Assembly: GCA_048213135.1 (NCBI GenBank)
Contig: PS015218.1
Span: 57,131-102,388 of the forward strand
DNA: 45,258 nucleotides
Origin: Reclinomonas americana ATCC 50394
Lineage: Eukaryota
Reading direction: 5' to 3'
Of the stretch, positions 914 to 45,258 are shown piece by piece. How positions within the stretch are numbered: position 1 is the stretch's first letter; every line of letters begins with the position of its first letter. The position numbers and the translations under genes are program-made. The notes below the pieces were generated by a model that was given only the letters and a program-made list of their open reading frames with translations, was not told the DNA's origin and ran no database searches.

Positions 914-2349
914 ATGACGGATCAAGCGGCGCCGATGGTGCCACAAGACGATGGCTTTGACATCCAACGGTTTATTTTGCTGCACTCACACAACACTCAC
1001 CTCTCACAATCTCACATTCCCACCTCGCGCGCGCGTGTTTGTGTCTTTTGTTGCGTAGTCAATTCGTGCTGGCACTGCACTCGTTTGAGCAACAGGTGTG
1101 TGTGTGTGTGTGTAACCGCACTTGAACAAAAAAATACGTTAGTGTGTGTGTGCTCACACATTGTTTGTGTTGCGCTCTCTCCTTCACAGCAAGCCATGCA
1201 GTTGTCGATGAATGCCGGCGAGGTCATTGAGGTGGTGGCCACTGACGAGTCGGGCTGGTGGTGCGTTGCTTTTTTGCTTTTTGTTTGCGTGTAACGAAAT
1301 GGACATCAGCACGCGCGCACTCTCTCTCTCTCCCGTCCTCTCTTCCTCTGTCTCTTCTCTCCTTGTGTTGCTGTCTGTCTGTCTGGTGGCGAGAGGGGTG
1401 CATCATGATGCTGACAGCTGTGCGTCAAAAGGTATGGACAAAACCTGCGTGGCGAGGAGGGCTACTTCCCCTCCAACTTTGTCGCGCCCATCTCGCTCAA
1501 TGAGGAGGGCCCCAGTGGCATGGTTGCGTCTGGGAGAGGAGCGGAGTCAACGAGACACACAGCGCAAAAGATGACTGACTTGCGTGTGCGTGTCTGTGTC
1601 TGTGTGTAGAATGGGTCCACGGCTGGCATGGATGAGTTGGCACACGCACTGGCTCGTGTGAAGCACGTGAACCGTGTGCTGGTCTACAACATGGAGAAGC
1701 GTGGCATCTCTCTTATGAGCTTGGAGACCGATCCGCCAAGTGTACGGGGAGACTCCGATCCAGGTGAGGACAACAACTCTATCCTTGTTCTCTCTCCTCT
1801 TCCTCTCTCTCTGCGCGCGTGTGTGTATGCGTGGTTGTCGTTGGCCACCACAAGTCACTGCTGCTCACACGCTTTGCTTTCGACAGTCGCGCTGGATGAC
1901 GATGTGATGCGGCATTGCCAGCAGATCCTCGACTCGCTCAAGCCGCATGTTGGCTTTGTGGCGGCGGATACGGAGGGCATGGCGCGCAAGGACGCGGAGA
2001 TTCGCCGTCTCCAGGAGCAGTTGGCACGAGCGTTGCGTCCATAACCGCCTTGACGAGTGTGAATTGCGCTGATCCTCACTCACCCTCGTGCTCAGTGAGT
2101 CACGACCAACCACGGACCCGCGCCAGACGGCCGAGCTGGAGGAGATGAAGCGAGAAAAGGCCGACATGGAGGAGATGTTGCAGGAGTCGGAGGCGGAGAA
2201 GGAGAAGCTCAAGAAGCAGCTGGCGCAGTCACGCGATCGCTTCAAGTCACTGAAGGGCGGCATTGGACAGTTGGCGGCCGTCAACGACAAGATCAAGCGC
2301 GTGAAGAAGGACATGGATGAGCTGAAGGCCGCCGTTCAGAGAACAAATG
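914..2349 (+). CDS. SH3-domain plus coiled-coil protein, multi-exon, 3' truncated at an assembly gap
   Basis: Spliced SH3: QFVLALHSFEQQ/QAMQLSMNAGEVIEVVATDESGWW/YGQNLRGEEGYFPSNFVAPI (ALxxF, WW and GYFPSNFV motifs). A coiled coil follows (ELEEMKREKADMEEMLQESEAEKEKLKKQLAQ...). The last visible donor is at 2350 and that intron runs into the N gap. Confidence 0.8.
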
Positions 2350-2864
2350 GTTTGCTGTTGCTGCTTCTTCTTCTATGCTGTGGTCGCCAACAACTTTCGT
2401 GCTGACGGTAANNNNNNNNNNNNNNNNNNNNNNNNNNNNNNNNNNNNNNNNNNNNNNNNNNNNNNNNNCAACAACAACAACAACAACAACACACGCACGG
2501 TAAACAATCCCCCAACGGCAACCACAAGCACAGCCACCCACACCCTTTCTCACATGCCCCTACGCTGTCTCCGTTTCTCTCCTCACTCTCTCCCGCCCGC
2601 CCGCCACACATGCAGTCGGCCTGGCGAAAACTTACACAGGCGCGACAAACACACATGAACGGTGGGAGAAGGAGAACAAGAGTGCACACCCCACAGCCGC
2701 AGTGACACAAAAAAACGAGAAGGGTAAGGGGGGGTAGTATGAAGAAGAACGCACAAGGGGGAGAGAAAAAAAGAGGGAGGATGGAATAGAAAAATGAAGA
2801 AGAAAAAAAAGAGATGCACATATAATGTGAACAGGGTGAAGTGTGCAGGCCACAGTCCGTCTCC

Positions 2865-3235
2865 TCATGAGCTGGAGCCCGCAGCAGAACCGGCCCTGCC
2901 AACATTCTTCTTGGCCTGGCCGAGCTCCACTGTCGCCACCTTGGTGGCGAAGTTGAGCGAGCTGAGAGACTCGGAGAGGTTCTCAATGGCCGGTGATATG
3001 TTGACAATCATGTTCACCTTGGAATTGCCGCCTAGGGGGAGAAGAAGCAATAGTGGGTGAGCAAGCATGAAAAAAGAAGCTGCGCAAGAAGGAGAGGTGC
3101 TCACCAAGCGAATCCTGAAGGATGTACGTGAGCTTGGAGTTGCGGTACGGTACGTGTGCGTTCTTCTGTCCGAGAGCAGACATGACATCACCCAGCGCCA
3201 GCAGCGACTTGTTGATAGCAATGGCCTCGTCGAGA
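2865..3235 (-). CDS. C-terminal exons of a kinesin-14 (C-terminal motor, KIFC-like) protein; fragment between two gaps
   Basis: [86 protein letters not shown]...*. The motor ends about 20 aa before the stop, with the kinesin-14-type 'VELG.AKK' ending. Confidence 0.85.
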
Positions 3236-13800: not shown

Positions 13801-14954
13801 GACGACGATGCCGACGACGCTGCAAAGTTGGATCTCGAGGCCGTCATTTGTGCTTCCAGCAGGCTGAGTTCGTGTTGGATTCGTTGCTCGAGGTTCCGCG
13901 ACAGTGTCGTCGCAGAGTGAGTATCCAAGTGGAACTGTGAGGTCGCCGACAATGGAGTCAGATCGGTGCCGTCGTCGTCGTCGTCGTCCTCTCCAAAGTG
14001 GCCGTCGGCTCTCGCCAGCGAGAAACGCGAAGAGCGCAGTGACTCCACGGTCGGTGGCACACTGCCGTGACTCCCAGAGCCCCCGTCGTCACGCCATCGA
14101 CCACTGCTGCTCCTGCTGCCACTGCTGCTACTCGTGTGGCTGTGATGACCAGTGGTGGACTCCAGACCCGAGGCCAACAACGCAGTGCGTGCCGTGGCAC
14201 CGAGAATTCTCTGCTGTTGACCGCTGCTGGAGACTGTGACGCGAGCGACAAACGTACCGTAAGTAGGAGCGATGCCGGTCTCTCTCTCTCTCTCTCTCTC
14301 TCGCAAGAAAGTGTAACTGTACGAGTCGCGAGAGTATGCCAGCGACATGCTTCTGCCACTGCTGCCAATGTCTCCTGTGGAGTTGAGGGCCGACATACTC
14401 AACGCAAGACTCTGCGTAGTACAGTCAACACCAATGAAAAGACCACATTCAGGAGAGTTGTCGAACCGAGTCTGGCATGATGGAGCCGGGCGGCGTGAAA
14501 GGCGTCGCCTGCAGTCCACCGGCTCGCAGTCGACTGGCGCGCAGGCGCTCTTGAGCATGAGGCGACGGCGTGATGATCACTCTGCGCACAGTGTCGACAC
14601 ACATATCGCATGAGAACAGCAGCAACACAGCGAGGGTGATCGATCACCACGCAACCTCTTCTCTGGCGACATGCTGAACGCAGACGGCGGCGACGCCAAC
14701 AACGATGCTATCGACGATGCCGACTGCGGCGGCGTCCGCACCACACGCACAATGTCCACACGCCGTCGTCGCTGCGGCGACAACGATGATCGCAACGACG
14801 ACAAGGACAAGCTCAGCTCGTCGTCGTCGACAGCAGCGTGATCATCGCCGTAATCGCCATCATCATCATCGTCGTCGTCGTCGTTGTCTCCCTCTGCGTG
14901 CGATTGGTGATGTGGCCGTCGGCGACGCCGCCTGGGATGACGGCGATCCAACAT
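7867..14954 (-). CDS. Large Sfi1-repeat (centrin-binding) protein; many exons, both ends approximate, 3' end runs into a gap
   Basis: Recurrent A-x7-LL-x3-F-x2-W(K/R)-like units across 9700-13300: ALQHHRAVLVQQVFAGW, ALELRRRHLLSHVFRHW, AARHRRAALLSTVFRRW, SNRHQQVLLESAFRLWK, RRGLLRKSFRVWR. Ser/Pro-rich low-complexity regions at both ends. Full exon structure not resolved. Confidence 0.7.
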
Positions 14955-15025: not shown

Positions 15026-18000
15026 ATGCTGCTGCTGCTGCGGTGGTGGCCTCGTCGCAGCGGTCTACCACCAGGCGTACCACTGTCACCCACCACTGCA
15101 TCATCATCATCATGGTTCGCACCAGTGATGCGATCCTTCGCCAGTCGTGGTCGTCGTCGCCAGGCGTCGGCTGTGGCGGAGCAGGCGCCGGTGATGGTGG
15201 AGAAGCGCTTGTCGTCGGCCAATGGTACGTTGTCGTTCTTGACTGCCTGCGTGCGCTGCGGTAGAGAATGACTTTGACAATGCATTGTGCGCAGCTTCCG
15301 AGTTGGATGTGCTGCTTCGGCGCATGGATCGCAGTCGGAAGCTGCGACAGCAAGGTGCGTGTGTGTACGTGCGTATGTGTGGCGCTGAGTGCGTCTGCCG
15401 ACCAATGCGCGTTCTGTTTCCATTGGCAGCGCTGATGCAAGGCGTGGAACCGATCGTGTGGCAACGCAGTTTGCGCATGTTCCGCCAGTCGCTGCTGTCG
15501 CCGGCGACGAGCACCACCACCACAACTACCACAACGACGACTACAACAACGACGACGAATGCAATGACGGCGACGAGCACCCTGTTATCCATGTCGACAA
15601 CTGGCGCGGAAGCACCGTTGGGTGAGGACCGATTGCGTGCTTGTCGGTGTTTTCGTCACTCACCTCGTCATGCACGTGTGTGTCGTAGCGCCGCACGAGC
15701 TGTTTGCCACGTTCATGGAGTTCTCTCGTCGCAAGTTTGGCCGTTCGATCAGCGCATATCGCGCGTTGATGCAACACTCGGACATGCGTTCGCCGCAGGA
15801 TTGGTACGCGGCAGCGCGTCAACGGCGGCGACACTTTACTTTTCACGTTGCGTACGTGTGAACGGAAGGGGGGAGGAGGGTGGGGAGATCGACACTGGCT
15901 GACTCCGCCGGAGGCATCGATGCAGTGTGGTCCGACGAATTCCGGAAAGAGTCATCATGCGGTGGAGGCCATGATGGCGGCGTCCTCTGGTGAGTGAGTG
16001 AGTGATGAATTTTGGAAGGTGAATGATGTGCGCCTCATTCTTGGCGACAGGCGTGTTTCTGGCTCCGCTACGACTGCTGGCATTGGAGATCTATCGACGA
16101 CTGAATGAGCGAGGTGTTCCCTGTTCGCTGCTCACTGGTGAGTTGGTGCAAGTGTTACTCGTGGGCGCACCATGCGGCTTATTTTTTCGATTACCATCAG
16201 GGGAGGAGCGCATCGATGTGGCGGGTGCAAAGCACGTGGCCTGCACGGTGGAAATGGCGAAACTCGAGCAGCCCGTCGAGTTGCGTCGAGAGAGGGATCG
16301 CTGACGCATGGAGAGCTTGTTGCTGATGGTGGGGGTGGGCGATGCAGCTGTGCTGTGCTGGACGAGGTGCAAATGATGGAGGATCCTGAACGTGGCTGGG
16401 CGTGGACGAGAGCCATTCTCGGCTTGAATGCCCCCGAAATACACGTCTGTGGTGAACCGCGAGCGCTGCGTATGTTGCAGCACTTTGTGCGACACACTGG
16501 CGACAAACTGATCACAAAGGAGTACGAGCGGCTGACCTCGCTCGTGCCACAACGACAGAGCCTGGAGGGCGATTTCAAGAATATTCGCGAGGTAATTTGC
16601 TTGCTCTCTCATGTCTTTCGTACGTATGGAGCTAAACATCTTTCACTTTTACAACTCAGGGCGACTGCATTGTGGCGTTCTCGCGCAAGCAAATCTACAA
16701 GATCAAAAAGGCGGTGGAGCGTCTGACACCGTTCCGCTGCGCTGTGGTGTACGGCTCGCTGCCACCGGCCACACGCCGCGCACAGGCCAGTCTGTTCAAC
16801 GACCGCGAAGCGTCACATACCAGTGTGCTGGTGGCCTCCGATGCCATCTCCCACGGCCTCAATCTCAACATTCGCCGTGTGGTGTTCTTCTCGCTGGAAA
16901 AGTACAATGGCACCGAATACGTACCGCTGCCGGCACCTCTCATTCGCCAAATCGGCGGGCGAGCGGGGCGGTTTGGCTCGCGGTACCCGAATGGAGAAGT
17001 GGCGTGGTGCGTGGCGATGAGCAATTACGACGAGTGTGTGCGGTAGTCGCTGAGCTGTCGTGTCTGTGCAGTTTCCATGCCGACGATGTGCCGACCATGC
17101 TGGAGGCGTTTGCCACGCAGCCCGAATCGATTCGTGTGGCTGGCCTGCTACCCGAGTTTGAGCAGCTGTCCATGTTTACCAGCACGATTGACACGCAGAT
17201 GCCGTTCTCCAGAGTGCTGGTTCCGTAATTGATGTGGCAGCTCGTTGGATCCACATAACTACTCACGCACCCGCGCAGGACAAGTTTGCCGAGATGGCGC
17301 AGCTGGATCGCGGGCATTTTGTGTGCGACCTGCGAGATCAGAAGATCATTGCCGACTGCATCGAGCAGATTTCGCTGTCGTTGAACGAGAGGTACACTTT
17401 TTGTGTGGCTCCAGTGGACACGAGGGAGGCTTCGGCCTTGCAGCATCTTGTCAAGGTGCACTTGTGTAAGAGGGAAAGAGACGGCAGCTCGTGTCTTCTC
17501 ACCGTTCCTTTTTGCTGTGCGTTCTGTCAGTTTGCTCGGTATCACTCGCGTCGCGAGTCTGTGCCAGTGCCGACCGTCATGCTGCCGGCGGTCGGTCGGA
17601 CGCAGGAGGACTTGCGAGAGATGGAGTTTCGTGCATGGTGGACGACGTGCCGGCGTGCAGCAACAGCAGGCTGACACTTTTTCTGTGTGCAGACTCTATT
17701 ATCACGCGCTCGACCTGTACTGCTGGCTCAGCTACCGCTTCGAAGAGACCTTTCTCGGTCGCGACTTTGCCGTGGAGAAGCGAGAGGACACTGGCCGGCG
17801 CATTGCGCGCACACTTGACTGCATGACACGGGGCTCTACGCCACTGGAGGAAGACGACGATGAGGGAGACGAAGCCGATTATGACGACAACTATCTGGCG
17901 ACTGAAGATCGGCGCTCTCGTCGCACACGACAGCACGACCGCCGCGGTCGTCAATGGTCGCGTGCGGAGAACAATGACCACGACGAAGACGACGATGATG

Positions 18001-18403: not shown

Positions 18404-19504
18404 TTACTTCTTTTGTGCCGGTGGGCCAATCTTGGTGGTCGTCTTGACCGACTGCTGCTCCAGCTTGTTCATCCCATCAATGGCCAGCAAAATCTCCTGC
18501 GTCGACGTCTCCAGCACCATGCCACCCATGATGATCTCATCGAGTACATAGTGCACCTGCCGCCACGCATGCATCTGTGTGTGAACAACCCACACGAGCA
18601 GCACAGCACAGAGAGAGACACACAAACACCACCGACCTTGTCGCTGTGGAAGATCAAGTCCAGCTCGCACACATTCTCAAAGCACCTGTCCAGCGTCTCC
18701 ACAAACACCTGGATGAGATCGAGGATGCCGAGCTCGCTCTCTGTGTCGTCCACCACCACCACAAAGTACAGCGTGGCGTAATGCCTGACGCGCACACAAA
18801 TCGCAATCAGCTCCCTCCCATGTTACACACGANNNNNNNNNNNNNNNNNNNNNNNNNNNNNNNNNNNNNNNNNNNNNNNNNNNNNNNNNNNNNNNNNNNN
18901 NNNNNNNNNNNNNNNNNNNNNNNNNNNNNNNNNNNNNNNNNNNNNNNNNNNNNNNNNNNNNNNNNNNNNNNNNNNNNNNNNNNNNNNNNNNNNNNNNNNN
19001 NNNGAGAGAGAGAGAGAGAGACACTGTGCGCGAACCTGTAAATCACACGCGTGCCCTTGCCCCAGTGGTTGAGTCCCTCGAGGAAGTTGCAGACGCGATC
19101 GGAGCGCTTGCACACGAGGCCGAAGCATTCGCGCAGAATTTCTCGTTGTTGAGTGTGCTGCGCGAGAAGTCGACATGAGTGTGCGACGAGAGGAGAAGGA
19201 GGGCGAGAGGGGCCACGCAACTGGTGTGTTGTCGTAGAACTTGGTCAGACGGGCCTTGCCGTGATTGTTCTGTGATTGAGAGAGTGCTTGCGTGAGAGAA
19301 GGAATGAAGCACAATGCGTGTGTGCATGGAGGAGGCAGACACTCTCGTGTGCACGCGCGATGTGTGAGTGTGTGCGAGGAGTTGTTGAGAGTGCGCAGCG
19401 AGAGGAGGACATGGCGTAAGAATAGCACGCCCTCTTCTCCTTCTCACTCTTTACGTCTTGGCGAGAGTGCTGAACGCAACAAAGATGAGGATGGCGCGGA
19501 TCAT
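18404..19504 (-). CDS. AP3S: AP-3 complex subunit sigma (5 exons)
   Basis: MIRAILIF/NNHGKARLTKFYDNTP/HTQQREILRECFGLVCKRSDRVCNFLEG...VIYR/HYATLYFVVVVDDTESELGILDLIQVFVETLDRCFENVCELDLIFHSDK/VHYVLDEIIMGGMVLET. Confidence 0.95.
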
Positions 19505-19653: not shown

Positions 19654-21193
19654 TCAGCGGCCCCAGAAGAACATCATCACCCATTCGTACGTGACAAAGA
19701 CCATGGCGTGCAGTGGTAATGCTCGCAGCAGGGCCATGCCCAAGCCGCGGTGGAAGGCAGCTGACGATCGACAAAGAGTGAGTACGACTGGGGAGAACAA
19801 ACAACCAGCAGCAACACCCACACAACACTCACCAAAGCCGCCCTCCTGATACAACTGTAAAATAACAACACACCCGAGTTAATTCTCTCACCACACTTAC
19901 TTCCCCCGCCCCCGCTTCGCCCCACTCACATGTCGCGCACAGTCCACGATGCCTGTGAATTGACCGGGAAGAGCATTGCTCATGCGTGTCTTCAGCACAT
20001 CTATGTAGTACATCGGTGGCAGCCACTGGCTCACGCCAGCAATGCCACCGGCCAGTAATGTTCGAGGAACCGACAGGTGCTCCGACGGATCGGCGTCGGC
20101 GGGGCGCAGATAGCGCTTCGCCAGGTCATACGTCGGGTAGTAGAACTGTGACAGGGGAGAGAAGTGAGTGAGACAACTGGCTTGAAGATGCAAATGTGGC
20201 GACGCAACAGCCAACTGCATCGCCTCACGCAGGAATGTGGCCGACATGCCACGGAACAGACCGCCATACACGCCCTCTCTTCTTATGAGATCTAATGCGC
20301 AGGCGCCCGACCAACTGTAGGGCGAGTGACCGCCCGGCAACTCACGCGCTTGCATGACGATCTTGACGCGTTCCAGCACCTGCCGCAGAGGTGCTTGCGC
20401 TATACCTGAGAGAGCACCACAACACAGCAGCTCAGGGACGCTGAGCTGCGTGACATGCTCCGCCTCGGAGACGATGCGCACGGCCCAGCCGTACGACGCG
20501 AAACCCACGGCCTTGATGAGACCGTACCCTGGTGTATCACAACACACAACAGTCAGCTCGTGAGCGGGGACAGGTGGTAAGGAGAGAGTGTGTACGAGAC
20601 CGGCAATGGGTGATAGCAGGCCGCGGTAGAGTGACAGCGGTCCATCGGCACGAATCACACGTGCCAGAGCCTCTCGCTGCGCGTGTGCATGAGGTAAGCA
20701 ACGAGAAGCGAAAGGAGGATCTCCCAAGGGCACACTGACCGCAGCGAGTCCATGCGCGCCCCGATACGTCTGCAGTCGGGTCTTGAGTGCTGCAAGTAAA
20801 ATCGCGTCAGGTTCGGCAGCGTTCGACAGGGACAACAACAACAAAAAACACGCAACTATCAAGCGGATACACCACCGTCACAGCCGCCGCACCAGCTGCC
20901 CACACAGACGAGAGAGAGAAATGAGCACGCGCGCAAATATGAAACAGAGATGCGGTCGTCGCACCAACGCTGCCCGCCAATAGCTCCTCGACGACCTTGC
21001 TCAGCTGGAGATGCGCTGCGACGCCCACGGGTGTGCCAAACGATGGCTTGGGCGTCATGGTCACTGTTGCTGCTGCTGCTTGTGGTGGTGCTTGTGGTGG
21101 TGGTGATTGAGCAGCAGCAGCAGAAGAGGGTGATGATGATGATGTGGATGATGATGACGACGATGACGATGTGGATGACATGGTGAGCGTCAT
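19654..21193 (-). CDS. Mitochondrial carrier (SLC25) paralog 1, amino-acid/carnitine-ornithine carrier-like; 8 exons; Ser/Ala/Pro-rich N-terminal extension
   Basis: Three repeats: YPLDTLKTRLQ...LYRGLLSP; QVLERVKIVMQ...GLFRGMSATFLRE; YYIDVLKTRM...AFHRGLGMALLRALPLHA. Confidence 0.92.
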
Positions 21194-24674: not shown

Positions 24675-26626
24675 TCATTGTGGCAGTGCTCTGGAGACGG
24701 CCTCGAAGCAGAAAAAGACAAGCTGTTGCACGCACACAATAAGTGAAAAAGTGAGTGGAGAGAGGAGGGAGCAGATGCGGGCACGAAACTGCATGCATGG
24801 GCAGTGCTCGGATGATTGCTGGCACGAGACCGCGGTGAAAGGCAGCAATGCCTCCTTCGTGCCATATCTGTGTGCAGGCACGAGAGAGATGGGTGAAGGG
24901 CTCCACAAAGAGAGATGGACAAGCAAGCAGCACGCACTTCGCGCACACAGTGCATCAAGGCTGCGAGCGCAACCAGTGAGAAAACCATGCAGTATCGATC
25001 CCTGGCGAAAATGGCACGCAACAAGTGTACTGGCCCGGATGAGCGTTGCTCATGCGCGTCTTCACCACATCGATGGGATACAAGGGTGGCATCCTACAGT
25101 TGCGCTGGCGGTGAGCAAGTTGTTGCACACATAGAGTCACCATCGACGTGACATGAACTTACCACTGCAAGACTCCGGCCACCGCACCTGGATCGGCAAT
25201 CACATGTAAGTGCACCAGATCGCTTACCCAGCTGAACAAAAAGGAATGCACGTACCAGCCACGAGACAGCGCTGCAGAGAGAGCTGATCACCCGGCTTGG
25301 CGTCGGCTGGCGTCAGCGCTCGCTTGGTGATGTCGTCTGCAGACCCAGGCATCTCTTGATTCACACAAACACAAACATGTGCAGCATCCACGGAGGAGAC
25401 GCAACACGTGGGATAGTAGACGCCGAACTGGGTGCCCTCACGAATCATGGTGGCCGACAGACCGCGGAAGAGGCCGTGTCGGAATCCTTCTCTCCTCACC
25501 AGGTCGGCGACACACGCACCGGACCAGCGATAGGGCGCCAGACCGCCTGCCCGTTCCCTGCCTGCCGAAAGCAATCACACACCAAACAGAAAGGAGATCA
25601 GAGAAAAGGAGAGAGTGCAGTGGCGACGTAGGAGCACGGAACCTTGCATGACAATCTTCACACGCTCAAACTAATTAATGCATTGGCGATGAGTGTTTCC
25701 GTTGTCAGTGTCCAAGCAAGTGCGGAAACATAACACGAACGACGTGAGCTCACCACCTGCAACACACATACACACGGTAAGAGACTCGTGCAGTGACAGC
25801 GGATGCCGCTGCACGACGCAACATGCCGAACGGGACCCTGCGCGATACCAGCAAAGAAACCGCAGGCGCCCAACTCCCACACCGACAGCTGCTTGTGCGG
25901 ATCGCCGCCCTGCATCGTGCGTCGCGCCCAACCATTGGAACCGAAGCTGAGAGCAAGTCAGGAACAGTGGCGTGGGGCCAGCGAAGAAAGCCACAACTTT
26001 GCACACCTGATGGCGTACATGATGCCGTCTTTCTCATGCAACGACGAAGGTAAGCGACGATCTGACTCGGAAGCGATACACACACACACGCACTGCAGTG
26101 TAACGCAACAGCCTGCACAGCAGAGAGTCAGCAATCGCATCAACACAGAGGCACACGACGAGGTGATCATGACAAACCACTGACAGGGCTCAACAGGCCG
26201 CGATCTGTGCGATGACACTCGTGAGCATGCAGCGGGGGCGGGTGAGCAAGAGAGAGACGCAACAGAGCGCCCGGTAACCGTCGGCACGGATCATGGACTG
26301 CATCGTGGAGTACTGCATGCATGCAAAGCTCAGTGATCACTCGCAACACTGAGAGAGAGACACACACACACACAGACCATGCCAGCACCGCTGGCGCCAC
26401 GGTGCAGCTGCAGTCGCGTCTTGGCAGTGTCAAAGGGCTGTGCACGATCATGGTCAGCGCCGAGGAAGGGGGAATGCAACTCATGTAGTACTCACAAACA
26501 CAGCAGTGATGCCAATCGCTCCCGCTGTGTGCATCGAGTGGAGTGAGAGTGTGGATGTGGAGGAGGACGGCGGTCAGGAAGAAGACCGATGGAGCCGGCA
26601 GCAAGGTCGTGCACCAGTGCTTGCAT
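24675..26626 (-). CDS. Mitochondrial carrier (SLC25) paralog 2; 17 exons including two 3-nt microexons
   Basis: MQALVHDLAAGSI/AGAIGITAVF/PFDTAKTRLQ...YRGLLSPVSGYGIMYAISF...PVRHVFERVKIVMQ...GLFRGLSATMIRE...YPIDVVKTRM...AFHRGLVPAIIRALPMHA/LVFFCFEAVSRALPQ*. Open frame after splicing. Confidence 0.9.
25754..25756 (-). other. 3-nt microexon (GTG, Val) in carrier paralog 2
   Basis: Minus strand ttgcag|GTG|gtgagc. Supplies the V in PVRH-V-FERVK, aligning with QVLERVK of paralog 1. Confidence 0.8.
26110..26112 (-). other. 3-nt microexon (GCT) in carrier paralog 2
   Basis: Minus strand ctgac...gtgcag|GCT|gttgcgt. G+GC and T+AC give Gly-Tyr, restoring the GYG of paralog 1. Confidence 0.8.
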
Positions 26627-26661
26627 GACGCGAACGATGGACGACGATTTGTCCTTTGTTT

Positions 26662-28475
26662 TTATTGTGGCTCGGGAAGTTTGCCGAAGAGCAGTAACAT
26701 GGACGCCTCGTAGCTGAAGAAGACAAGCTGCGTGGAGACCCGGCGAGAGGTCGGTCATCGGAGACAAGGGTCTCGGAAGAATGGAAACGACGTCAACGCA
26801 ACTGCGTGCATCGGAAGTGCTCGTGCCAGTGCTGGGACGAGTCCGCGATGAAAGGCGCCGATGCCGCCCTCGGCGTACAGCTGCAGAACCAGACACACAG
26901 GTCAGTGTGAGAGGATCGAGGCTGTAATGAAAGCGGAGAACGTACCTTGCGAATGCAGTCCCAGACACCTGTACATGTGTTTGTACAAGGGTCTTGGTGA
27001 GCACGTGTGCTGAGTTGCATCGCATCGGACTCGTCGTGCACAAACCAGTGTACTCGCCAGGCAGCGCATTACTCATGCGTGTCTTCACGACGTCGATCGC
27101 GTACAGCGGTGGAAGCCTGCGAAAACAGAGGCAAGGGTGAGCCACCGATGAGACGATCGGTGTGTGCTCGTAGTGCACCATTGCAGCACACCGGCCGCAG
27201 CGCCGGCCACCAGGCACTGCACCAGCGACACGTGGTTGGCGGGCGCATCGGCTGGTCTCAGTGCCTCCTTCACCAGATCGTCTGCCACGCAGCGCAGTGA
27301 ACGAGAGAGTCACGAAGAGAAATCGCTGGGATGCGCCACGCAACAGGCTGGATAGTAGACGGCGAACTGAGCGCATTCGCGAATGGTGGTCGATGTGTTG
27401 CCACGAAAGAGGCCCTGCCTCAAACCCTCTTTCCGAATGAGATCTGCGGCACACGCTCCCGACCAGCGATACGGTGCGTGACCGCCGGCACTTTCACGAG
27501 CTGTCGCACAGTCAGTGAAATGCAAGGAAACTCGACGGCACATGGCGCGTCACCTTGCATCACGATCTTGACACGCTCAAACTGCGCTCCTCCACACACG
27601 AGAATGTTCAAGTGAGAAAAACAACGCCACGGCAATCACCTGGGTGACTGCAAACACGAACCACCTGCGTCGCGGGAGTGAGCCAGCAGCAGCGAGGAGA
27701 AAGACACCACGCTTGCACGCAACATGCGTGGGAGGCGCCTGTGCGAGACCAGCAAAAGCCCCACACAGGGCCAGCTGGTACACCGAGAGTGGCTTGCTGT
27801 CTTCCCCACCCTGCATCGTGCGTCGTGCCCAACCGTATGCTGCAAAACTGCGACATCCGCCCGCGAATGAGATCACAAAGAGGCGAGTTGCCAGCACGCA
27901 GCGTATTCGCACTCACCTGATGGCGTACATGCCACCATCTATTAGCGGCATCGGCGAGGAGAGCACTGCAGTGAGCAAACAACTCCACAGCGACACGGAC
28001 GAGGAGACAACTCACATCCTGCAAGCATGCACCAAAGTGAGGCAACTCGCCACAAGAACGGCTTGCATGCAAGATGCACTCACCGGACACTGGCGACAGC
28101 AGTCCGCGATATAATGAGCGCACACCGTCCTTCCGTACCAGATCGCGCATCGCCGACATCTTTTGCACAAGAAAGGTGATTTCTCCGAGTTTTCGAACAT
28201 GATCACTCACACACACAACACACGGACCATGCCAATGCCGTGTGCGCCGTGATGCACTTGGAGGCGAGTCTTGGCCGTGTCAAACGGCTGCACATGGGTG
28301 AACACAAGAGACGCATGACACGAGAGAGAGAGAGAGAGAGAAAAGGCGACGCACAAAGACAGCCGTGATGCCGATCGATCCAGCTGCGCACTGGTGTCAG
28401 TGGTCGCCACTCACCTCTCTTGTTGCAGCACTCACCGATCGATCCAGCCACCAAGTCCGCGATGAACGCGTCCAT
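26662..28475 (-). CDS. Mitochondrial carrier (SLC25) paralog 3; 15 exons including two 3-nt microexons
   Basis: MDAFIADLVAGSI/AGSIGITAVF/PFDTAKTRLQ...LYRGLLSPVSGYGGMYAISFAAYG...PPTHVFERVKIVMQ...GLFRGNTSTTIRE...YAIDVVKTRM...AFHRGLVPALARALPMHA/LVFFSYEASMLLLFGKLPEPQ*. Confidence 0.9.
27662..27664 (-). other. 3-nt microexon (GTG, Val) in carrier paralog 3
   Basis: Minus strand ctcac...acgcag|GTG|gttcgt; same position as the paralog 2 microexon at 25754-25756. Confidence 0.8.
28016..28018 (-). other. 3-nt microexon (GAT) in carrier paralog 3
   Basis: Minus strand ctcac...ttgcag|GAT|gtgagt. G+GA and T+AT give Gly-Tyr; same position as 26110-26112. Confidence 0.82.
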
Positions 28476-34830: not shown

Positions 34831-37800
34831 TAACAGTGGTAGTGGTGATGGTGGTGGAGGCGACAATGTCGCTCCTGTGCAACGACCGGTTGACCCTGTC
34901 GACGCGTTCACACCCGACGTTGGTGAGTTCCCTGCGGAACACATGCGTCACTCGCTTCTTTTTCTCTCATGTGCGGTGGTGGGATCATAGATGTTGCCGA
35001 AGCCGCTGCACGATTCGGCAATCCCGACCTCAAGCTCCGCATCGAGCGCCTGACCAACGAGAACCGACTGTTGCGACAAGGCAACGATTGCCTCAGCGAA
35101 GAGCTGGCTTCCATGACTCGCGAGAACAATCAGCTGCGATCGGCGCTCGATAACCTCGGGCAAGACAATGCGCAGCTCATGTCCAACGCCGAGGAACTGG
35201 GCCTGCGACTGGCGCAGCTGATGCAACATCGTGGTGATGGCAGTGGTCACGGCGGCAGCGGCACTCGTGGACGACACCACCATCACCGTCACCACCAACA
35301 CGCATCACACGCACACACAGCGGCGACGGCGACGGCGGCGGCGTCCGACAGCCAAGGTGCACGCGCAGAGGACGGTGGTGGCGAGGCGCTGTCGGGAGTC
35401 TCGCCGTTGCTCTCGGTCAACGACGCCAGCATGACGGCGGCCGAGGCCATGGACAAGGTGCGGCGGCTGCGCGACGAAAATCTGCAGCTGCGCGCTCAGC
35501 TCTCGGCATCGTCCTCCATCAACTCCTCGCCCGTCAGCCCGCTTGTGCTCTCCGACGCCGACGAGGACGACGAAGACGAGGCGATCCGAACGCAGGAGGC
35601 AATCACGGCCGCCGCCATGGCTGCGGCTGGCGCCGTCGAGGCGTCGGGCGACTCGGGTCAGTCGATTGCTGCTGCATGGCAGCGGATTTCGGAGCTCGAG
35701 GCGGCGCATGCTGAGCAGGTTACAACACTGGAGCGACAGCTCTTGGAGTCNNNNNNNNNNNNNNNNNNNNNNNNNNNNNNNNNNNNNNNNNNNNNNNNNN
35801 NNNNNNNNNNNNNNNNNNNNNNNNNNNNNNNNNNNNNNNNNNNNNNNNNNNNNNNNNNNNNNNNNNNNNNNNNNNNNNNNNNNNNNNNNNNNNNNNNNNN
35901 NNNNNNNNNNNNNNNNNNNNNNNNNNNNNNNNNNNNNNNNNNNNNNNNNNNNNNNNNNNNNNNNNNNNNNNNNNNNNNNNNNNNNNNNNNNNNNNNNNNN
36001 NNNNNNNNNNNNNNNNNNNNNNNNNNNNNNNNNNNNNNNNNNNNNNNNNNNNNNNNNNNNNNNNNNNNNNNNNNNNNNNNNNNNNNNNNNNNNNNNNNNN
36101 NNNNNNNNNNNNNNNNNNNNNNNNNNNNNNNNNNNNNNNNNNNNNNNNNNNNNNNNNNNNNNNNNNNNNNNNNNNNNNNNNNNNNNNNNNNNNNNNNNNN
36201 NNNNNNNNNNNNNNNNNNNNNNNNNNNNNNNNNNNNNNNNNNNNNNNNNNNNNNNNNNNNNNNNNNNNNNNNNNNNNNNNNNNNNNNNNNNNNNNNNNNN
36301 NNNNNNNNNNNNNNNNNNNNNNNNNNNNNNNNNNNNNNNNNNNNNNNNNNNNNNNNNNNNNNNNNNNNNNNNNNNNNNNNNNNNNNNNNNNNNNNNNNNN
36401 NNNNNNNNNNNNNNNNNNNNNNNNNNNNNNNNNNNNNNNNNNNNNNNNNNNNNNNNNNNNNNNNNNNNNNNNNNNNNNNNNNNNNNNNNNNNNNNNNNNN
36501 NNNNNNNNNNNNNNNNNNNNNNNNNNNNNNNNNNNNNNNNNNNNNNNNNNNNNNNNNNNNNNNNNNNNNNNNNNNNNNNNNNNNNNNNNNNNNNNNNNNN
36601 NNNNNNNNNNNNNNNNNNNNNNNNNNNNNNNNNNNNNNNNNNNNNNNNNNNNNNNNNNNNNNNNNNNNNNNNNNNNNNNNNNNNNNNNNNNNNNNNNNNN
36701 NNNACGGACACGCATCGCGGATCTGGAGGCATCAATGCACGATGCAATTCTGGAACGCGAACGCGCCTGCCAGCAGCACTATCACGTTGCGTGCGGCTAT
36801 TCGTGTGCTGCTTGACCGTCGACTGTGCGACGCGACTGACGTGGGGTCTCTCGTCCTCTCTTTTTGTGTGCAGCACATGCTTATTGAGCTGCAGGAGCGT
36901 CAGTCGGAGACCATGGCCACAGTGGAGCAGAAGCTCCGCGAGGACAAGTCGGCGCTGCAGGCCAAGGACGCTCACATTGCGACGCTGACGGCGCGTATCA
37001 ACAATCTCGAGTCAGAGTTGCTGGTGGCCATGGAGCAGCGCGTGCAGTACGAGCAAGAGATCGCTGCGCTGGTGGGTGAGGTGGAGCGGCTGCGTGAGGT
37101 GTGCGGCGAGAACGAGGCCGACGACGACGACGATGATGGTGATGATGATGATGAGGAGGAGGGTCGCAACAGAAGCAGCGCCGCCAGCCGCCGCGCCGCC
37201 ACCAAGGGTCTGTCGCCCGAGGAACGCGCCGGCTATCGTGACGCCTCGGCTCTCGCTCTCCCTCTGACACCTGGCCGCGGCGAGGGAAGTCCGCGGGCCC
37301 GATTCAAGGCACAAGTCGCACACATCAAGNNNNNNNNNNNNNNNNNNNNCAGGAACATGCGCGGGAGATTGAGCGCCTGAAGGCCGATCACCAAAAGGAG
37401 ATCGATGCGTGGATTGCGTACAAGCGGCAGCGCATGGCCGCCGAATCCGAAGCAGCGGCAGCGGCCGCCGCCGCCGCCGCCGTGTCTGCCGTCAGTGGCG
37501 CCAACTCCTCTGCAGCCTCGCCGCGACGGGAGCGTGTCCTCGCATCTCCTCGTCGTGACCGCGACCTGTCGCCCAGACCAGCACTGTCACCACGACCTTC
37601 GCCGCGCTCCTCTCTGTCGCCGAGACCATCGTCCATGACTTCGCCCCGCTCGCCAAGGCGTGTGCGGCCTCCGCCCTCTGTGCCGTACTTGCAAGTCGAC
37701 CTGGCCACCGCTGCTGNNNNNNNNNNNNNNNNNNNNNNNNNNNNNNNNNNNNNNNNNNNNNNNNNNNNNNNNNNNNNNNNNNNNNNNNNNNNNNNNNNNN

Positions 37801-39275: not shown

Positions 39276-42200
39276 TCACGGCAGTTCCAGCTGCTGTCGC
39301 ATTGCACGCCGTCGACCCTCCAGCATGTCTTGATACATCATTTCGTCGTCGTCCAGGTAATAGAACAAGTGTCGCTCCTTGGTCGGCAGGTTGGTGATCG
39401 GAGGGCCCATCCATTTGAGCAGCTTGGCTTGCACGCGCCGCACGAGATCGGTGTGCGCTGCTCACGAAATGCAATCAATGGAGGCGTGCATGCAAGGTGG
39501 TGGGGCGAGCACGCAACGCTTCGGGACAACGGTGGCCGGGGGCGGGGCCTGGTAGTTGGGCGACATGACACGCAAGTTGCGTGCGCGCAGTTCCTCGATC
39601 TCGCGTACCGCCACCTGCACGTAGTGCTCGTACAGCTCGAACCACACCTTGATATCCAGCGACCAGGCGTCTTCCACGTCACCACCTTTTCGACACGTGT
39701 AAGCCACACAACGTGCAGATCATTTGTATCGTGAAGGGACGGACGTACCGTGCGTGAGGTCGTCGACATCTGCCGGGTGGCGCAGGCGTGCCGTGTACTG
39801 CGACACCTCTCGACGAACCGCATCTTCGGCAGCCTTCTCCGCCACCTTGCCAATGTGCTTGTCGACCAGCTGATCAATGTCCTTTTGCAAGTCAGCGTAC
39901 TGCACCTTGAGCACCGTGCGCACGTACTCGAGCACTTCGCGTCGACTGCAATTCGGCACATGGTCAACAAACGACGCCCCCGTGTGCCAGCAGCGACACG
40001 TGGTGAACGTACGTGTACTGAGTAGCCAGCGCCGTCGGTGAGTAGTCCGGCAAGTACACCGCGGTGGGAAACTTGCCGGCCTGTGCGCGCACAGTACGCA
40101 GCTCCTTGCAGAACCGCCAGAGGAATTCGAACCGTGCAAACTCGCCCTCGCCTAACTCGGCCGCCTCTTCGCTGTCCTGACCTCGACCGCTGTCGCGTGC
40201 CACCAGCTCCATCTACGGACTGCCATGTAAATGGGGAGAGGAGCGGAGGCACGGAGAGAACGAGAGCACCTTCTCCAAGCACCACGCCTCCACCAGGTTG
40301 AGTTGAACATTGCTGGCCCGCTCGGCCAATACCAACAACGCACGTCGCACTGATGGAGGTAGCTGCATAGAATGCGGTTCCTATCCCGTTCAGTGCTTAT
40401 CGTGCGCAATCGCAGAAAGATACCGAGTTGAGCCAACCTTGGAGCTGACAGGAAAGCGCTCGTAGGTCTCCTCCGTGCGCACCCGAGCAGGCTGTCGATC
40501 TGGCGGTTTTTTTGGTCGCCGTCGCCGCTGCTCTGTCACCTCTTCGTCGACGCCTGACAGCGTGCAATGTGCATTTGTTACGCGGTGAGTGCCTGGCCAG
40601 CTGCCACACTCGGGAGACCACCACCAACCATTCAGCAGATCCAACTCGACCTGCCATCGCGCAGGGAATGTACACGACTGCGAGATGATGGCGAGCACGT
40701 CGGGAGGAAAGCTGTCGCTGGCCGACACCGGCGCGACAGCATCCATGTCTTCCACCGCACTGCAGCCGCACAAGTAGCGCCGCGTGTACAAGAGGGCGGC
40801 ACAGGCGGTTCGCATGTGCTTGGTGGCTCTGAAACCTGTGCGCATTAACGCAACGATGAGGATGGCGGAGGACACAAGGTCACGGGCGGGGCCGGTGCAG
40901 GCGCACCTTGGGGATGACTGGCCAAGTGTGCAGCGAGAATGCGAAGAAACTCGGACTCGTTTTTACACACGGCGTCGGCGGAGGACACTTGCAAGTTGAG
41001 GAGGCGCGTCGTTCCGGAGGCCGCCGATGCACCTGCGCCGCCAAACTCCTCAGACGATCCGATCTGAGGCAAGGGAACACGAGGGGGTAAGCATCGTAAG
41101 AAGAACACGCACTTACTCGACCGCACGGCACCCACCCGACGAGAGTCGACCGGCGGCGACGTGTCGGCCACCATGGCTTGCCGGATGACACGCACAGCGT
41201 CGACAATCCCCGGCTGTGACAGGAGCGCTGACAGGCAAGAAGGCATGTCAATGGACGATAAAATACATGGACATGCAGATCACGTCAGACTGAACCTGCG
41301 GCCTGAAGGCGCTGCCGCCGACGTTGGCGGACGGCCACACGAATGCCTCCAACAATCTCTCTTTGCAGCACGGCACCCACTGATTCATCCGCAGCAGGCA
41401 GCGCATCTGCTGCGAGCAGCTGACGAGCCCTGCAAAAACAAAAAACACACGCGAGTGAATTGGGTGCAACGCCGTGAGCTCACTCACAGAGCGCACTCAC
41501 CGTCGCAACACATCCACACGTCGTTGCAAGTCTGCCATTTGTCGAGCAACTTGTTGCATCTTCTTGTTCGGGTCGCGGTACAGTGGAACGCGAACGACAA
41601 ACTCGCCATGTCGCTGGCCAGGCGGAGGGATGGCGGCACGTATTCGCAGCGTCGTACCAATGGTGATGTCTGTAAAACTGTTGTGCACACACGGGAGTGA
41701 GCTACTGCATCCCGAGTCATGCAACGAACACGCAACGGCCAGTCAGGCAATGCAACGTCAAAGTCGGGGCGATCCTGTTGCGCATCAATGCTTTGTTCCG
41801 CGGCGAGCTCTTGTTGTAACCGAGTGCTCAAGTAGTGCACATAGCGGCCGACATCCTCGGCACTGGTGAGATCGATCTGCGGTGCTGGGTTGGCCAACAC
41901 ACCACAGCCGCCATACATCGGCACTTTTGCGCGCACGCAACTCGCTGCGGGAACGACTCTGAAGGGCGCATGGTGGCGAATGCGGACGGCGGCGCCACAA
42001 TCGCAAACTCCTCGTCATCGGCGAATACCACCCGAGGCACCAGTAGCAAGCCGCGAGCGCGCAAGTCTGCCAACGCATACAGCAGGATACGATAGGCTCG
42101 ACGGAGAAGTGTGCGGAGTGCCTCTTGCACCTGCAGCACCGTGCGTGTGGTCAACGACTGGCCTTCTGCGTGTGACTCTCGTTCAGTAAGTGCTCCGCAA

Positions 42201-43683
42201 GTTCATGAAGGTGCTACCAACTGTGCACACACCTTCTGCGTTCGCGGCAGTGGTAGACGCGGCGCCCTGTGCCACGGCGCCCATGATGAGGTGCTTGAGT
42301 CGCGTGGGGGTCACTGAAGACGTCGATGGTGAGAGTGAGGAAGGGGGGTAGGAGTGGGCGGGCGTTGGTGAACGAACCACCGAATGGTCGCAACAGCGTG
42401 GCCACCACTCGCTGCAGCCAGCGCACAGGTGCATTGCGATACTCGATCTCTCGCTGACGGAGGGCCGACAGCAGTGATCGGAGAAACGTGTCGGACGAGT
42501 AGGCGGCCGTCGACAGGACCTGTGTGTGTGTGAGGGAGTGAATGTGTCGGCAAGTATATGGAGGGGGGAAGGAGCGACATGATGACACCCACCGTCCACA
42601 GCAACTCGGGCTCCATGTCCGGCAGCAGCCACGGAAGCATGCGACTCGCGAGCGCAAAGAACTCTTGCTGCAACGTGCGGTGAGAGCGACACGGAGTGCA
42701 GCAGGAGAAGCGCCGACACACAAACCTTCATCATCAGCAACACGTCGTCGCGTACGAGATGCCAGGCATCCTCCAGCACCGTGTTGCCTACGTGGTGCGC
42801 ACAGTCGTGAGTGCACGCAATAGGAGACGCATCCCACGAAAAGGGACGCACCCTCGGCCAGCTCCCGCGACCTCGTGCGCTCCACCTCCTGCTCCCTCCG
42901 CCTGCGCAACACCACGTCCAATCGTCTGCAACAAGCAAGCCACTCGTGAGCCACTCGAGCGCGCGAGCGATGAACCAGTTCTTTCTCCCGACAGACCGCC
43001 GACGCAAGTGCTGGCGCAGCAGCAGCGACACCTCGTTGGTCGTCAGTCCGCGATGTCGCACGAGTCTGACACGCGCAACTCAGCATGCAGAGATATTCTT
43101 CTTAGTGTGTGCGTGCAAGCTCACCTCTCGGCCCAGTCCAGAAGCACCTGACGAGCAGCCGCAGTGCGCACTCGTGCTCCCTCCATCCCATCCCGCGACG
43201 AGCTGTCGATGCTGATGGTGGATTGAGTTGTCTCGCGTCTGTGCATGCATGCACACACACAATCACACAGACCGCAGTCCCTCGGCATCCATGATGGCCT
43301 CCAAGGCGGCCACAGTGCCTACCATCCCCCCACAGTCAGTCAGCGAGTCAGTGTGCAAAGAACACGAGTGCTAGCGCAACGATGTGGCAATGCACGATGC
43401 GGACGAGATCGACGAGCAGGAGCTTGACGACGCTGTTGCCACTCACATGAGACACACACACAGACACACACTTGGGATCGCACACATGCACAGGCAGGCA
43501 GCGGACCTGTCGGAGTGCAACGCGACGCAGCAGTCGCCATTGCCACACCGCTGCGGCCTCGTCTCTCGCGTGCTGCCACATGCTACGAGTGCGCTGCACT
43601 GAGGCCTGCAACATGTGCGTCACTGTGTTGGTGCACGACTCGAGTCGCGCCACCAGCGACGACCGTGCATCGTCCCTGCTCAT
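39276..43683 (-). CDS. Large multi-exon protein of unknown function (possibly two genes; start approximate)
   Basis: Phase-compatible GT-AG exons, e.g. SESFPQR/IDLTSAEDVGRY, LPDWP/FTDITIG, VVPKP/HTDLVRRVQAKLLKWMG...QQLELP*. No family recognised. Confidence 0.6.
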
Positions 43684-43773
43684 TCTCCATTCTATGCACG
43701 ATCAGAGACGGACGGAAGTTCACTCTCACTCCCTGTGCGACTCGCCGTCCCTCTTCTCTACGGTGCTGGTGCA

Positions 43774-45258
43774 TCATCGCTGCTCGTGCAGCGTCAGCTC
43801 CTTTTCGGGTATCGCCGAGAAGTACTTGGCCACTTCGTCGTCGGCGACGTCGGCCAGTGCGGCGGGCTGCCAGTTGCGGGTGCTGCGCTTCTCAATCAGC
43901 TGCGCACGGACGCCCTCGTAGAAGTCCTTGCCGTGCTGCACCGAGCGCAAGGCAAGAGTGCATATGGTGAGAGTGGGGGGAGGGAGGGGAGGGGGAAGGG
44001 GAGGAGGGGAGGGGAGGGGAGGGGAGGGGAGGGGAGGAAGGGAGAGGGGAGAAGGGGAGGNNNNNNNNNNNNNNNNNNNNAGAGAGAGAGAGAGAGGGAC
44101 ACACACACACACACAAACCATCATGTGGTACGCAATGCGGTACTCCATCTTCAGGCAATCGGCGAGCGACAGTGTGGCGCCCTCGCGCAGTTGGCGATAG
44201 GTCACCTTGAGCGACGTTGGCGACACCTTGTGCTGCAGCGTCTCCAGCGTCTTCTTCTGCCACTCCTTCTCGTGCGGTGTGCCACTCTCGGTCTTCAACG
44301 CCTTGACAATCTCCTCCACGCTCGACTTGGAGAAGCAGCGATCGATAATGTCGAAGAACTGCGTCACCGAGTGCCGTTCTTCGCCCTCACCCTCAAACGC
44401 CTCGATCGTGTTCTCGATTGCGTTCACCGCATCCTCCCGACTCAGCACATCCACCGACAGATCCGCCAGTGCCGCCTCCAGCTCATTCAGGCGGTGGCCG
44501 GGCACATAGTGCGTGGCAATACCCGCCTCCCTGCGCGAAGCGAGTGAGTCGAGACTGCAGCGGAGACACCGCTACTCACACAGCAGCACCACGCAACACA
44601 AGCTCCTTNNNNNNNNNNNNNNNNNNNNCCGCCCATCACCAGCCCGTGCATGAATGCAATCGTCGGCTTTTGCAGAGTGCCAATGAGGTAATCCAGACGG
44701 TACTCCTCGCGGAAAAAGTCCAACGCCAGCTTGAAGTTGCCGGCCATTCCCGCCTGCACAATCGCCTTGACGTCGCCACCCTGCGCGACCAACAGCTCAG
44801 TGTGTGCACGCACAACAAAATGCATGCGCAAATGCAACAAGGGTGTTCGCACCGCACACAGCGCACGGTCGTCGCCGCGCAGAAGCACTGCCTTGGTCGT
44901 CTTGCTCTTCTCCCACACCTATGCAACTGCGTGAGGAGAGAGAGAGAGTGCGGAGAGGAGGGAGAGTGGAGAGAGAGCACCTCGTACTGCTTTGTCAGCG
45001 AGCGAATCATGGCGAGATTGATGGCATTGAGCGCCTTTGGTCGGTTCAGTGTCGCCACCTTCAGTCCGCTCGCATCGGTGAACTTGACCTGCACAGCTCT
45101 TGAACGTCAGCACACAGACGCGACATGTCCCACTCTGCTCAAAAAAAAACGCACCTCACTGCTCTGCTCGTGATGATGATGCTGATCGTGGTGGTGGTGC
45201 TGGTGGTGGTGTGATGCCGTGCTGAGCGACCGCACAGTGAAGGCACGCGGAAGCCGCA
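43774..45258 (-). CDS. HIBCH: 3-hydroxyisobutyryl-CoA hydrolase (crotonase family), mitochondrial; 5' end at or just beyond the window edge, internal gap
   Basis: TLNRPKALNAINLAMI, ALCA/GGDVK, FFREEYRLDYLI, KPTIAFMHGLVMG, GIATHYV, SPTSLKVTYRQLREG...CLKMEYR, DFYEGVRAQLI, WQP. Confidence 0.93.
43975..44060 (+). repeat. Purine-only (GGGGA)n-like tract inside a HIBCH intron, bordering a gap
   Basis: GGGGGGAGGGAGGGGAGGGGGAAGGGGAGGAGGGGAGGGGAGGGGA...; many G3-G6 runs. Confidence 0.85.

Follow-up and report, generated by a model that had tools for sequence, protein, structure and literature searches.

The stretch of DNA analysed here (the window) comprises 45,258 bases of contig PS015218.1 from Reclinomonas americana ATCC 50394, contains 3,871 N in 14 separate runs, and is GC-rich, gene-dense and extremely intron-dense. 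The subject of this study is a group of its introns that start with the heptamer GTTGCGT or a looser relative of it, and in which the conserved G-T of the 5' splice site (donor) stands at intron positions +6/+7 and not at +5/+6. These introns are referred to as the offset class. Genes were located by Pfam scans over 411 stop-to-stop frames, each of at least 58 codons. A SUV3 helicase gene was identified on the forward strand (~15.4-17.8 kb), and on the reverse strand a class-III aminotransferase gene (AGXT2-like, 22.1-23.8 kb) and three mitochondrial carrier genes, carriers 1, 2 and 3 (~19.7-21.1, 24.7-26.4 and 26.7-28.5 kb, respectively). Genes encoding an adaptor sigma subunit, Utp11, UTP6, a kinesin and an enoyl-CoA hydratase-like protein were also located, as were a Sedlin gene, an SH3/coiled-coil gene and Ac45/VOA1-like, C2CD5-like and Sfi1-like genes. 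Carriers 2 and 3 are tandem paralogs of the carnitine/acylcarnitine type (24657-28700, reverse strand) with 13 and 11-13 introns in about 300 codons; this intron density of about 1 per 70 nucleotides (nt) of coding sequence is exceptional.

Introns were placed in five genes (SUV3, the aminotransferase and carriers 1-3) with a protein-to-DNA spliced aligner, which required a GT start and an AG end and contained no other donor term. Homologous proteins were aligned for the aminotransferase (10), SUV3 (10) and the carriers (18), and an intron was kept if it was chosen by at least one third of the homologs. The closest aminotransferase homolog showed 69% identity. The closest named carrier homologs were those of the ochrophyte algae Tribonema minus (52%) and Chrysoparadoxa australica (45%), and the closest named SUV3 homologs those of Capsaspora and Lottia. 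The searched collections contained no protein above 69% identity for the aminotransferase, 53% for the SUV3 exon or 52% for the carriers, and therefore neither this organism nor a near relative seems to be represented in public protein sets. A search for metagenome relatives with the SUV3 exon yielded 116 pattern matches, 0 of which were confirmed.

In total, 45 introns were placed. They start with GT and end with AG, and their removal restores a reading frame colinear with the homologous proteins (10-18 homologs per gene). The same junctions were obtained under stricter and laxer gap and intron penalties. GTTGCGT is an abundant donor: it starts 12 of the 45 introns (27%), compared with 14 for GTRNGT, 6 for GTYNCG[T/C], 5 for GTYNGT and 8 for other sequences. 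Support for GTTGCGT ranged from 7/18 to 18/18 homologs in the carriers and from 9/10 to 10/10 in SUV3. Two further GTTGCGT donors were identified in the adaptor gene, AP-3 sigma. The latter were picked because of the motif and are therefore included in the count of validated donors (14) but not in proportions (12/45).

On the forward strand, GTTGCGT starts two SUV3 introns, one of 79 nt after cac (15847..15853; 9/10 homologs, and 7/8 under both other settings) and one of 68 nt after cga (16280..16286; 10/10 homologs), which was also called by a donor-blind gene finder. All other validated GTTGCGT donors lie on the reverse strand. In carrier 1 they start a 67-nt intron after ata (20850..20856; 16/18 homologs) and a 63-nt intron after gct (20202..20208; 17/18). 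In carrier 2, introns of 59 nt after tct (26257..26263; 18/18), 152 nt after cat (25816..25822; 13/18), 69 nt after cgt (25399..25405; 13/18) and 62 nt after ctt (25016..25022; 17/18) start with the heptamer, as does an 81-nt intron after a putative 3-nt micro-exon (26103..26109), for which support was weak (7/18; 3/10 under strict and 8/10 under lenient settings). The carrier 3 introns are those of 142 nt after cat (27717..27723; 14/18), 63 nt after cct (27338..27344; 15/18) and 75 nt after gca (26796..26802; 16/18). A preliminary description of the window had counted ten GTTGCGT donors in the three carriers, and these were recovered as 2 + 5 + 3, the one at 26109 being the weak case.

In AP-3 sigma (19005-19540, reverse strand), the heptamer starts a 211-nt intron after ttt (19474..19480), for which the gene finder called the same intron, and a 64-nt intron after cca (19215..19221). 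Both were placed by colinearity with PDB chain 9c5c_S. Exon 2 matches 9c5c_S residues 9-21 (E=1.9 alone, but the only match among 177,635 sequences) and exon 3 matches residues 24-67 (E=8.6e-7), and the residue numbering runs on without a break only if both introns, those starting at 19480 and 19221, are taken out. Exons 1 and 2 of this gene are only 8 and 16 codons long, and its first intron is the one of 211 nt. The gene is cut by a run of N (18833-19003), and a possible further donor lies at about 19034 (cag/GTTCGCG; a slash marks the exon-intron boundary) at this gap.

Six more donors of the offset type were placed by alignment. In SUV3 these are GTTCCGT at the start of a 59-nt intron after ctg (17220..17226, forward strand; 8/10 homologs) and GTTTCGT at the start of a 67-nt intron after gga (17626..17632, forward strand; 6/10, and 2/8 and 4/8 under the other settings). 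Both had been listed in the preliminary description as GTYYCGT donors and are borne out. The remaining four, all on the reverse strand, are additional to the positions named there: GTCTCGT in carrier 1 (20594..20600; 72-nt intron after ccg, 16/18 homologs), GTTTCGC in the aminotransferase gene (23677..23683; 78-nt intron after gca, 10/10), and GTTTCGT (24783..24789; 67-nt intron after gca, 12/18) and GTTCCGT (25636..25642; 81-nt intron after aag, 13/18) in carrier 2.

Within the five aligned genes the heptamer is confined to donors. In the span of 8,923 nt, 12/12 sense copies of GTTGCGT were located at aligned donors, with 0 elsewhere and 0 in antisense orientation, whereas GTG[AC]GT occurred 10 times at donors, 11 times elsewhere in sense and 13 times in antisense. 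An origin of the motif from a (TG/CG)n intronic background, which the preliminary description had named as the result that would speak against a donor class, is thereby ruled out in these genes. Over both strands of the window, 36 copies were counted versus 11.61 ± 3.07 expected from 100 dinucleotide-preserving shuffles, of which 0 reached 36. The wider pattern GTYNCGT, with 75 copies versus 62.4 ± 7.9 (5/100 shuffles reached 75), was not enriched beyond GTTGCGT, and the excess therefore belongs to GTTGCGT itself.

Donor status was assessed for 20 of the 36 copies, 12 by alignment, 2 by colinearity and 6 with the gene finder. The gene finder was self-trained, used only GT and AG, and was weak: in cross-validation it gave 21/45 exact introns with 20 false calls, compared with 33/45 exact and 16 false calls when a donor model was supplied. 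An expectation-maximization run that also scored acceptors and intron length inflated to 364 introns and was set aside. At single sites, true donors could not be separated from random GT sites by coding score, and the combination of a branch module with open frames did not separate them either (32/45 true donors and 452/1500 random sites passed). GTTGCGT was the top donor 7-mer in each donor-blind pass (9/105, 16/150, 13/124, 11/92 and 8/64).

The six gene-finder donors lie outside the six genes with validated cases. On the forward strand, 4/4 donor-blind passes predicted GTTGCGT donors for an 87-nt (1523..1529) and a 64-nt intron (2032..2038) in the SH3/coiled-coil gene and for an 88-nt intron in an unnamed gene (36786..36792). 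On the reverse strand, predicted donors in unnamed genes start an intron of 60 or 90 nt (39511..39517; 4/4 passes, with differing acceptors) and one of 65 nt (41935..41941; 3/4 passes), and a last one, adjoining an N gap, starts a 67-nt intron (44591..44597; 1/4 passes). The donor at 1523 is the sole supported GTTGCGT donor with a G before it. Among the other 16 of the 22 copies outside the six genes, those at 11828 and 39576 are antisense to, or outside, local gene calls. At all nine positions named in the preliminary description, GTTGCGT was present on the strand given there. Set against its count of at least 21 GTTGCGT donors, 14 have been validated here and support extends to 20 in total.

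The use of the heptamer depends on the last exon base. As the preliminary description had proposed, GTTGCGT was used after bases other than G: position -1 was G in 0/14 validated GTTGCGT donors compared with 27/33 other donors (Fisher p=1.1e-7). This rule held when carrier 3, the tandem paralog of carrier 2, was left out (0/11 versus 20/25, p=7e-6) and when all carriers were left out (0/4 versus 10/12, p=0.008). Of all 36 copies in the window, 3 have a G before them. Seen from the exon side, 20 donors lack a G at -1, and 17 of these belong to the offset class, with G at +6, the other 3 being GTRNGT. Conversely, all donors with neither GTRNGT nor the offset motif come after G (13/13). Degenerate donors after exonic G had also been reported in the preliminary description, and 13 of the 27 donors with G at -1 indeed carry no GTRNGT.

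For a description of both classes, the 18 aligned donors of the offset class were compared with those of the 27 other introns. The consensus of the ordinary donors is [A/T] G / G T G [A/C] G T G; out of 27 donors, 24 have A/T at -2, 24 have G at -1, 22 have G at +5, 20 have T at +6 and 14 have G at +7. In the ordinary donors T (14/27) is more frequent than A (10/27) at -2, giving TG/GT; the usual eukaryotic preference at this position is A. The consensus of the offset class is [A/T] / G T T G C G T (G), in which C at +5 and G at +6 are invariant (18/18 each) and T stands at +7 in all but one donor (17/18). Its exon side is displaced by one base: A/T was found at -1 in 14/18 (p=0.0012 against an exon background of 0.39) and at -2 in only 7/18, and G at -1 in 3/18. 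When the classes are placed side by side, both give the 9-mer W-G-K-T-G-M-G-T-G; what sets them apart is a single position, which is G or T, and the place of the intron GT.

The 3' signals are shared by both classes. The median intron length was 68.5 nt for the offset class and 68 nt for the other introns, a CTSAC-like branch motif was identified in 16/18 and 23/27 introns, respectively, mostly 13-24 nt from the 3' end in both, and C was found at acceptor position -3 in 16/18 and 24/27. Base composition and phase spread were alike. From the same length, branch-like motif and acceptor it is therefore concluded that one spliceosome probably removes the introns of both classes. Apart from these signals the intron bodies are unrelated: mean pairwise identity was 0.515 within the offset class, 0.538 among the other introns and 0.528 between the groups. 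An introner or repeat intron family was rejected, as the offset-class bodies are no more alike than those of the other introns.

Carriers 2 and 3 share intron positions, but the bodies of the shared introns show random-level identity (0.56-0.57 versus 0.50 ± 0.10). Despite this drift, GTTGCGT is retained at the homologous pairs 25822/27723 and 25405/27344. At the pair 24789/26802, gca/GTTTCGT stands opposite gca/GTTGCGT. The interchange of classes between paralogs that the preliminary description had noted was observed at two pairs. At 25022/27045, ctt/GTTGCGT corresponds to ctg/GTTTGTG, and the donor loosens together with a T-to-G change at -1; at 25642/27553, GTTCCGT corresponds to GTGACGC. 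Judged from these sequence comparisons, the pattern indicates that the heptamer is under selection and that the classes exchange freely.

The same two genes contain unusual exon-intron structures. At the homologous positions 26110-26112 and 28016-28018 (reverse strand) in carriers 2 and 3, a good acceptor is followed by exactly 3 nt and then by a strong donor (GTTGCGT and GTGAGT, respectively). These positions can be read as a 3-nt micro-exon flanked by two introns of the usual length (65+81 and 65+77 nt) or as part of one unusually long intron. Homolog support was split: 7-8/18 for the micro-exon versus 3/18 for a single 149-nt intron in carrier 2, and 5/18 in carrier 3. The homologous introns 25671-25822 (152 nt) and 27582-27723 (142 nt) are about twice as long as the tight norm of 59-81 nt and might hide another micro-exon.

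Elsewhere in the window, a 543-codon open frame with runs of Ser, Thr and Ala and no Pfam match was observed at 12948-14576 (reverse strand). This frame adjoins the Sfi1-like frame and may belong to the same large gene. No Rfam families were identified in the window, either at gathering scores or at E≤1, and hence no small nuclear RNA (snRNA) is located within it.

The evidence favors a one-base offset register over coincidence, since the preferred exon bases are displaced together with the motif (A/T at -1 in 14/18 versus at -2 in 24/27) and the 3' signals are shared. That the exon-side preference is displaced along with the intron side suggests a single 9-mer, W-G-K-T-G-M-G-T-G, which is cut in two cleavage registers. 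In the register WG/GTGMGTG, the intron-initial GT would lie at word positions 3-4, and in the register W/GTTGCGTG at word positions 2-3. The RNA that recognizes the 5' splice site, presumably the U1 5' end, would bind the word in one register, and the scissile bond would then be set one base upstream by the reader of the GU at the catalytic stage. The conserved G-T would be found at +6/+7 as a consequence of one recognition word serving two cleavage registers. Donors after an exonic G could then be degenerate on the intron side, and donors that lack this G would almost always carry the heptamer. The results above show that the donors are genuine, that their class is abundant, that the rule on the last exon base applies, that the exon-side preference is displaced by one base and that both classes have their 3' signals in common. 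The full reading, in which GTTGCGT, together with the looser GTTTCGT and GTTCCGT, constitutes a highly specific 5' splice-site class of ordinary GT-AG introns, represents the intron-side-defined half of a two-class donor system and reflects one word cut in two registers, is put at an even balance between holding and failing. With regard to the irregular register proposed in the preliminary description, the class with its conserved G-T at +6/+7 and its use after bases other than G stood, and the recogniser is an indirect proposal: the identity of the RNA or protein that reads the word, and the register it would use, we infer from the donor sequences.

Several results weigh against one word cut in two registers. 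A canonical U1 5' end, its pseudouridines treated as U, was folded with the donors in duplexes in which bulges and loops were allowed. The mean duplex energy of the GTTGCGT donors was only -1.0 kcal/mol, with an area under the receiver operating characteristic curve (AUC) of 0.22 versus decoys, compared with -7.9 kcal/mol (AUC 0.88) for GTRNGT donors and -2.8 kcal/mol for the decoys themselves, 626 GT sites from the same genes. As the GTTGCGT donors pair worse than decoys, a plain shift on a standard U1 fails as an explanation on its own. The C at +5 is invariant in the offset class (18/18), whereas A and C each occur 11 times at the equivalent position of the other donors; from a shift of register alone this would not be expected. 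The match of the 3' flank is weak, with G at +8 in 8/18 offset donors versus G at +7 in 14/27 others, and a likelihood comparison gives no ranking of shift versus bulge, the cost of a bulge being unset. Further points concern the sample. The junctions were placed by protein alignment or colinearity, and when GC donors were allowed cheaply, the junctions at 25822 and 27723 moved 3 nt downstream (8/10 and 5/10 homologs, respectively). A single 45-kb window was sampled, three related carriers account for 10 of the 14 validated donors, and two pairs among the carrier donors are inherited copies. Within one window and six genes the observation is real and strong.

The poor canonical pairing implies either that the recogniser in this lineage is not the textbook one, or that U6, U5 or protein contacts carry the class. 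It also lends some weight to the variant snRNAs or dedicated factors that the preliminary description had put forward. A co-evolved or additional recogniser, that is, a U1 5' end, a second U1 paralog or a protein matching UGCGU, would explain the donors by itself and with no irregular register. Canonical U1 is predicted to discriminate against them, their predicted pairing improves to -7.3 kcal/mol with a hypothetical U1 in which G and C replace the two pseudouridines, and C at +5 is invariant. The GCGT core is also the donor consensus of Mamiellophyceae, for which a change in snRNA is raised as a possibility in the parts of the accounts drawn on here (PMC2483917, PMC3879977). However, GTGAGT, the commonest ordinary donor 6-mer (8/14 GTRNGT donors), fits canonical U1 better (-10.0 versus -7.8 kcal/mol with the hypothetical U1, in the example folded), and the overall AUC rose only from 0.65 to 0.71 with the hypothetical guide, a comparison that is circular, the guide having been derived from the motif. 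A recogniser of this kind as the whole explanation is considered unlikely. It is likewise doubtful, though worth entertaining, that the offset site is the main intron-defined donor class genome-wide and is sustained by a changed recogniser, with a U1 5' end or paralog set against UGCGU, possibly with a matching change near the ACAGAGA box of U6.

In a bulged register, U1 and later U6 would pair normally at G+1 and U+2, the pyrimidine at +3 would be flipped out, and GCGT would fill positions +3 to +6. GTTGCGT is GTGCGT with one additional T, and a position weight matrix of the ordinary donors fits the class once +3 is deleted (summed log-odds 58.8, with no cost charged for the bulge). For human sites, bulges of one base at +2/+3 and at +3 have been proven by experiment, according to the excerpts used of PMC4856993. 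Under a bulge, however, the exon-side pairing would be unchanged and a G at -1 would be favored, and the opposite was found (0/14 versus 27/33). Exon positions -2 and -1 score -9.5 and -14.7, respectively, in the +3-deleted alignment, and the folding that allowed bulges still reached only -1.0 kcal/mol on the canonical U1 5' end. The bulged register is regarded as quite unlikely.

A diverged U12-type or other separate spliceosome that removes the GTTGCGT introns has in its favor that a rigid, extended 5' motif and the absence of an exon-side consensus, both of which are seen in the offset class, are U12-type hallmarks. To our knowledge, the GTTGCGT motif is unlike the U12-type donor or branch consensus. 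The 3' halves of the introns are the same as those of the other introns in branch motif, distances, CAG acceptor, length and composition, and the classes swap at homologous positions. As the 3' signals of the two classes are indistinguishable, the U12-type reading was rejected and is very improbable. That no biological class exists and the donors reflect misplaced junctions, copies inherited between paralogs or from a mobile intron family, or a TG/CG-rich background is hardly credible and largely refuted by specificity, alignment and shuffles: 10/14 validated cases do lie in three related genes, the introns are rich in TG and CG and the gene finder is weak (21/45 exact in the absence of a donor model), but the junctions, in six genes that represent five families, were placed from unrelated homologs by procedures free of any motif term, the 7-mer never occurs inside introns or exons of the five aligned genes, the intron bodies of the class resemble one another no more than those of the other introns do, and the excess in the window (36 versus 11.6) was reached in 0/100 shuffles.

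How the cleavage site is fixed as the 5' splice site passes from U1 to U5/U6 is an active question, and non-canonical registers have so far been studied solely as rare human exceptions. If one word cut in two registers is correct, an organism in which at least a quarter of the donors carry a displaced G-U would represent a natural high-copy system for the question of register, with a class that depends on the last exon base almost without exception. Such a system could reveal the RNA responsible for the register, whether an extra nucleotide is tolerated by U6 and any co-evolution of U1. A changed recogniser, if true, would mean that the most conserved RNA-RNA contact in splicing had been re-wired naturally. 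Splice-site scorers and gene finders that expect a G at +5 from their training would misplace or miss offset introns, which affects the annotation of a poorly sampled and extremely intron-dense lineage.

Registers other than the canonical one are known from human sites. Roca and Krainer (2009) reportedly described U1 recognition of atypical human 5' splice sites in a shifted register, and Roca et al. (2012) are said to have described one-base bulge registers at 5' splice sites. In the excerpts used of two accounts, U1 reads some human 5' splice sites one base downstream or with one-base bulges (PMC11162779, PMC4856993). According to the latter, all proven non-canonical registers together make up 1.5% of 201,541 human sites, with 54-68 sites for a bulge at +2/+3 and 36-51 for a bulge at +3 (Tan et al., 2016, PMC4856993). 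As far as these excerpts go, the human shifted register resembles the offset class in that the consensus lies one position downstream, cleavage occurs at the GU and position -1 resembles the usual -2. It differs in its rarity, compared with 12/45 unbiased donors and 17/20 donors lacking G at -1 in the window, and in its core, AAGU versus GCGU here, where U1 pairing is a prediction. The human bulge registers share with the offset class the appearance of a donor that has gained one nucleotide between +2 and +5, but they predict a normal exon-side preference, in contrast to the 0/14 observed for G at -1.

The core of the heptamer has a close counterpart in Mamiellophyceae green algae, whose donors and branch sites are given as strict GTGCGTG and (G)ACTGAC(G) in the parts consulted of Irimia and Roy (2008, PMC2483917) and Verhelst et al. 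(2013, PMC3879977). On this basis, the algae and the window have in common the GCGT(G) core, a CTGAC-type branch motif and an atypical C at +4 that is poorly paired by standard U1. The Mamiellophyceae genomes, unlike the extremely intron-dense window, are intron-poor and use one register, AG/GTGCGT, and no GTTGCGT class is described in those parts of the two accounts. Introner elements, for example those of Micromonas (PMC3879977, same excerpts), likewise comprise many introns with an identical extended donor, but the intron bodies in the window are mutually unrelated. A whole-word text search, the scope of which excluded supplements that might hold donor logos, retrieved no splice-donor literature on GTTGCGT or its relatives.

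The closest parallel for the dependence on the last exon base is the division of 5' splice sites into AG//GUNNN and NN//GURAG classes, as presented in the excerpts used of PMC11732430. In that system, as in the window, an exon-side G anti-correlates with the intron-side consensus, intron starts after G are loose and the classes are evolutionarily interchangeable. The difference lies in the intron-side class, which is //GURAG with G at +5 there and //GUUGCGU with G at +6 here, the usual form being found in only 3 of the 20 donors that lack G at -1. The dependence on position -1 is therefore not new in kind: it matches the published split between AG//GUNNN and NN//GURAG, in a new form.

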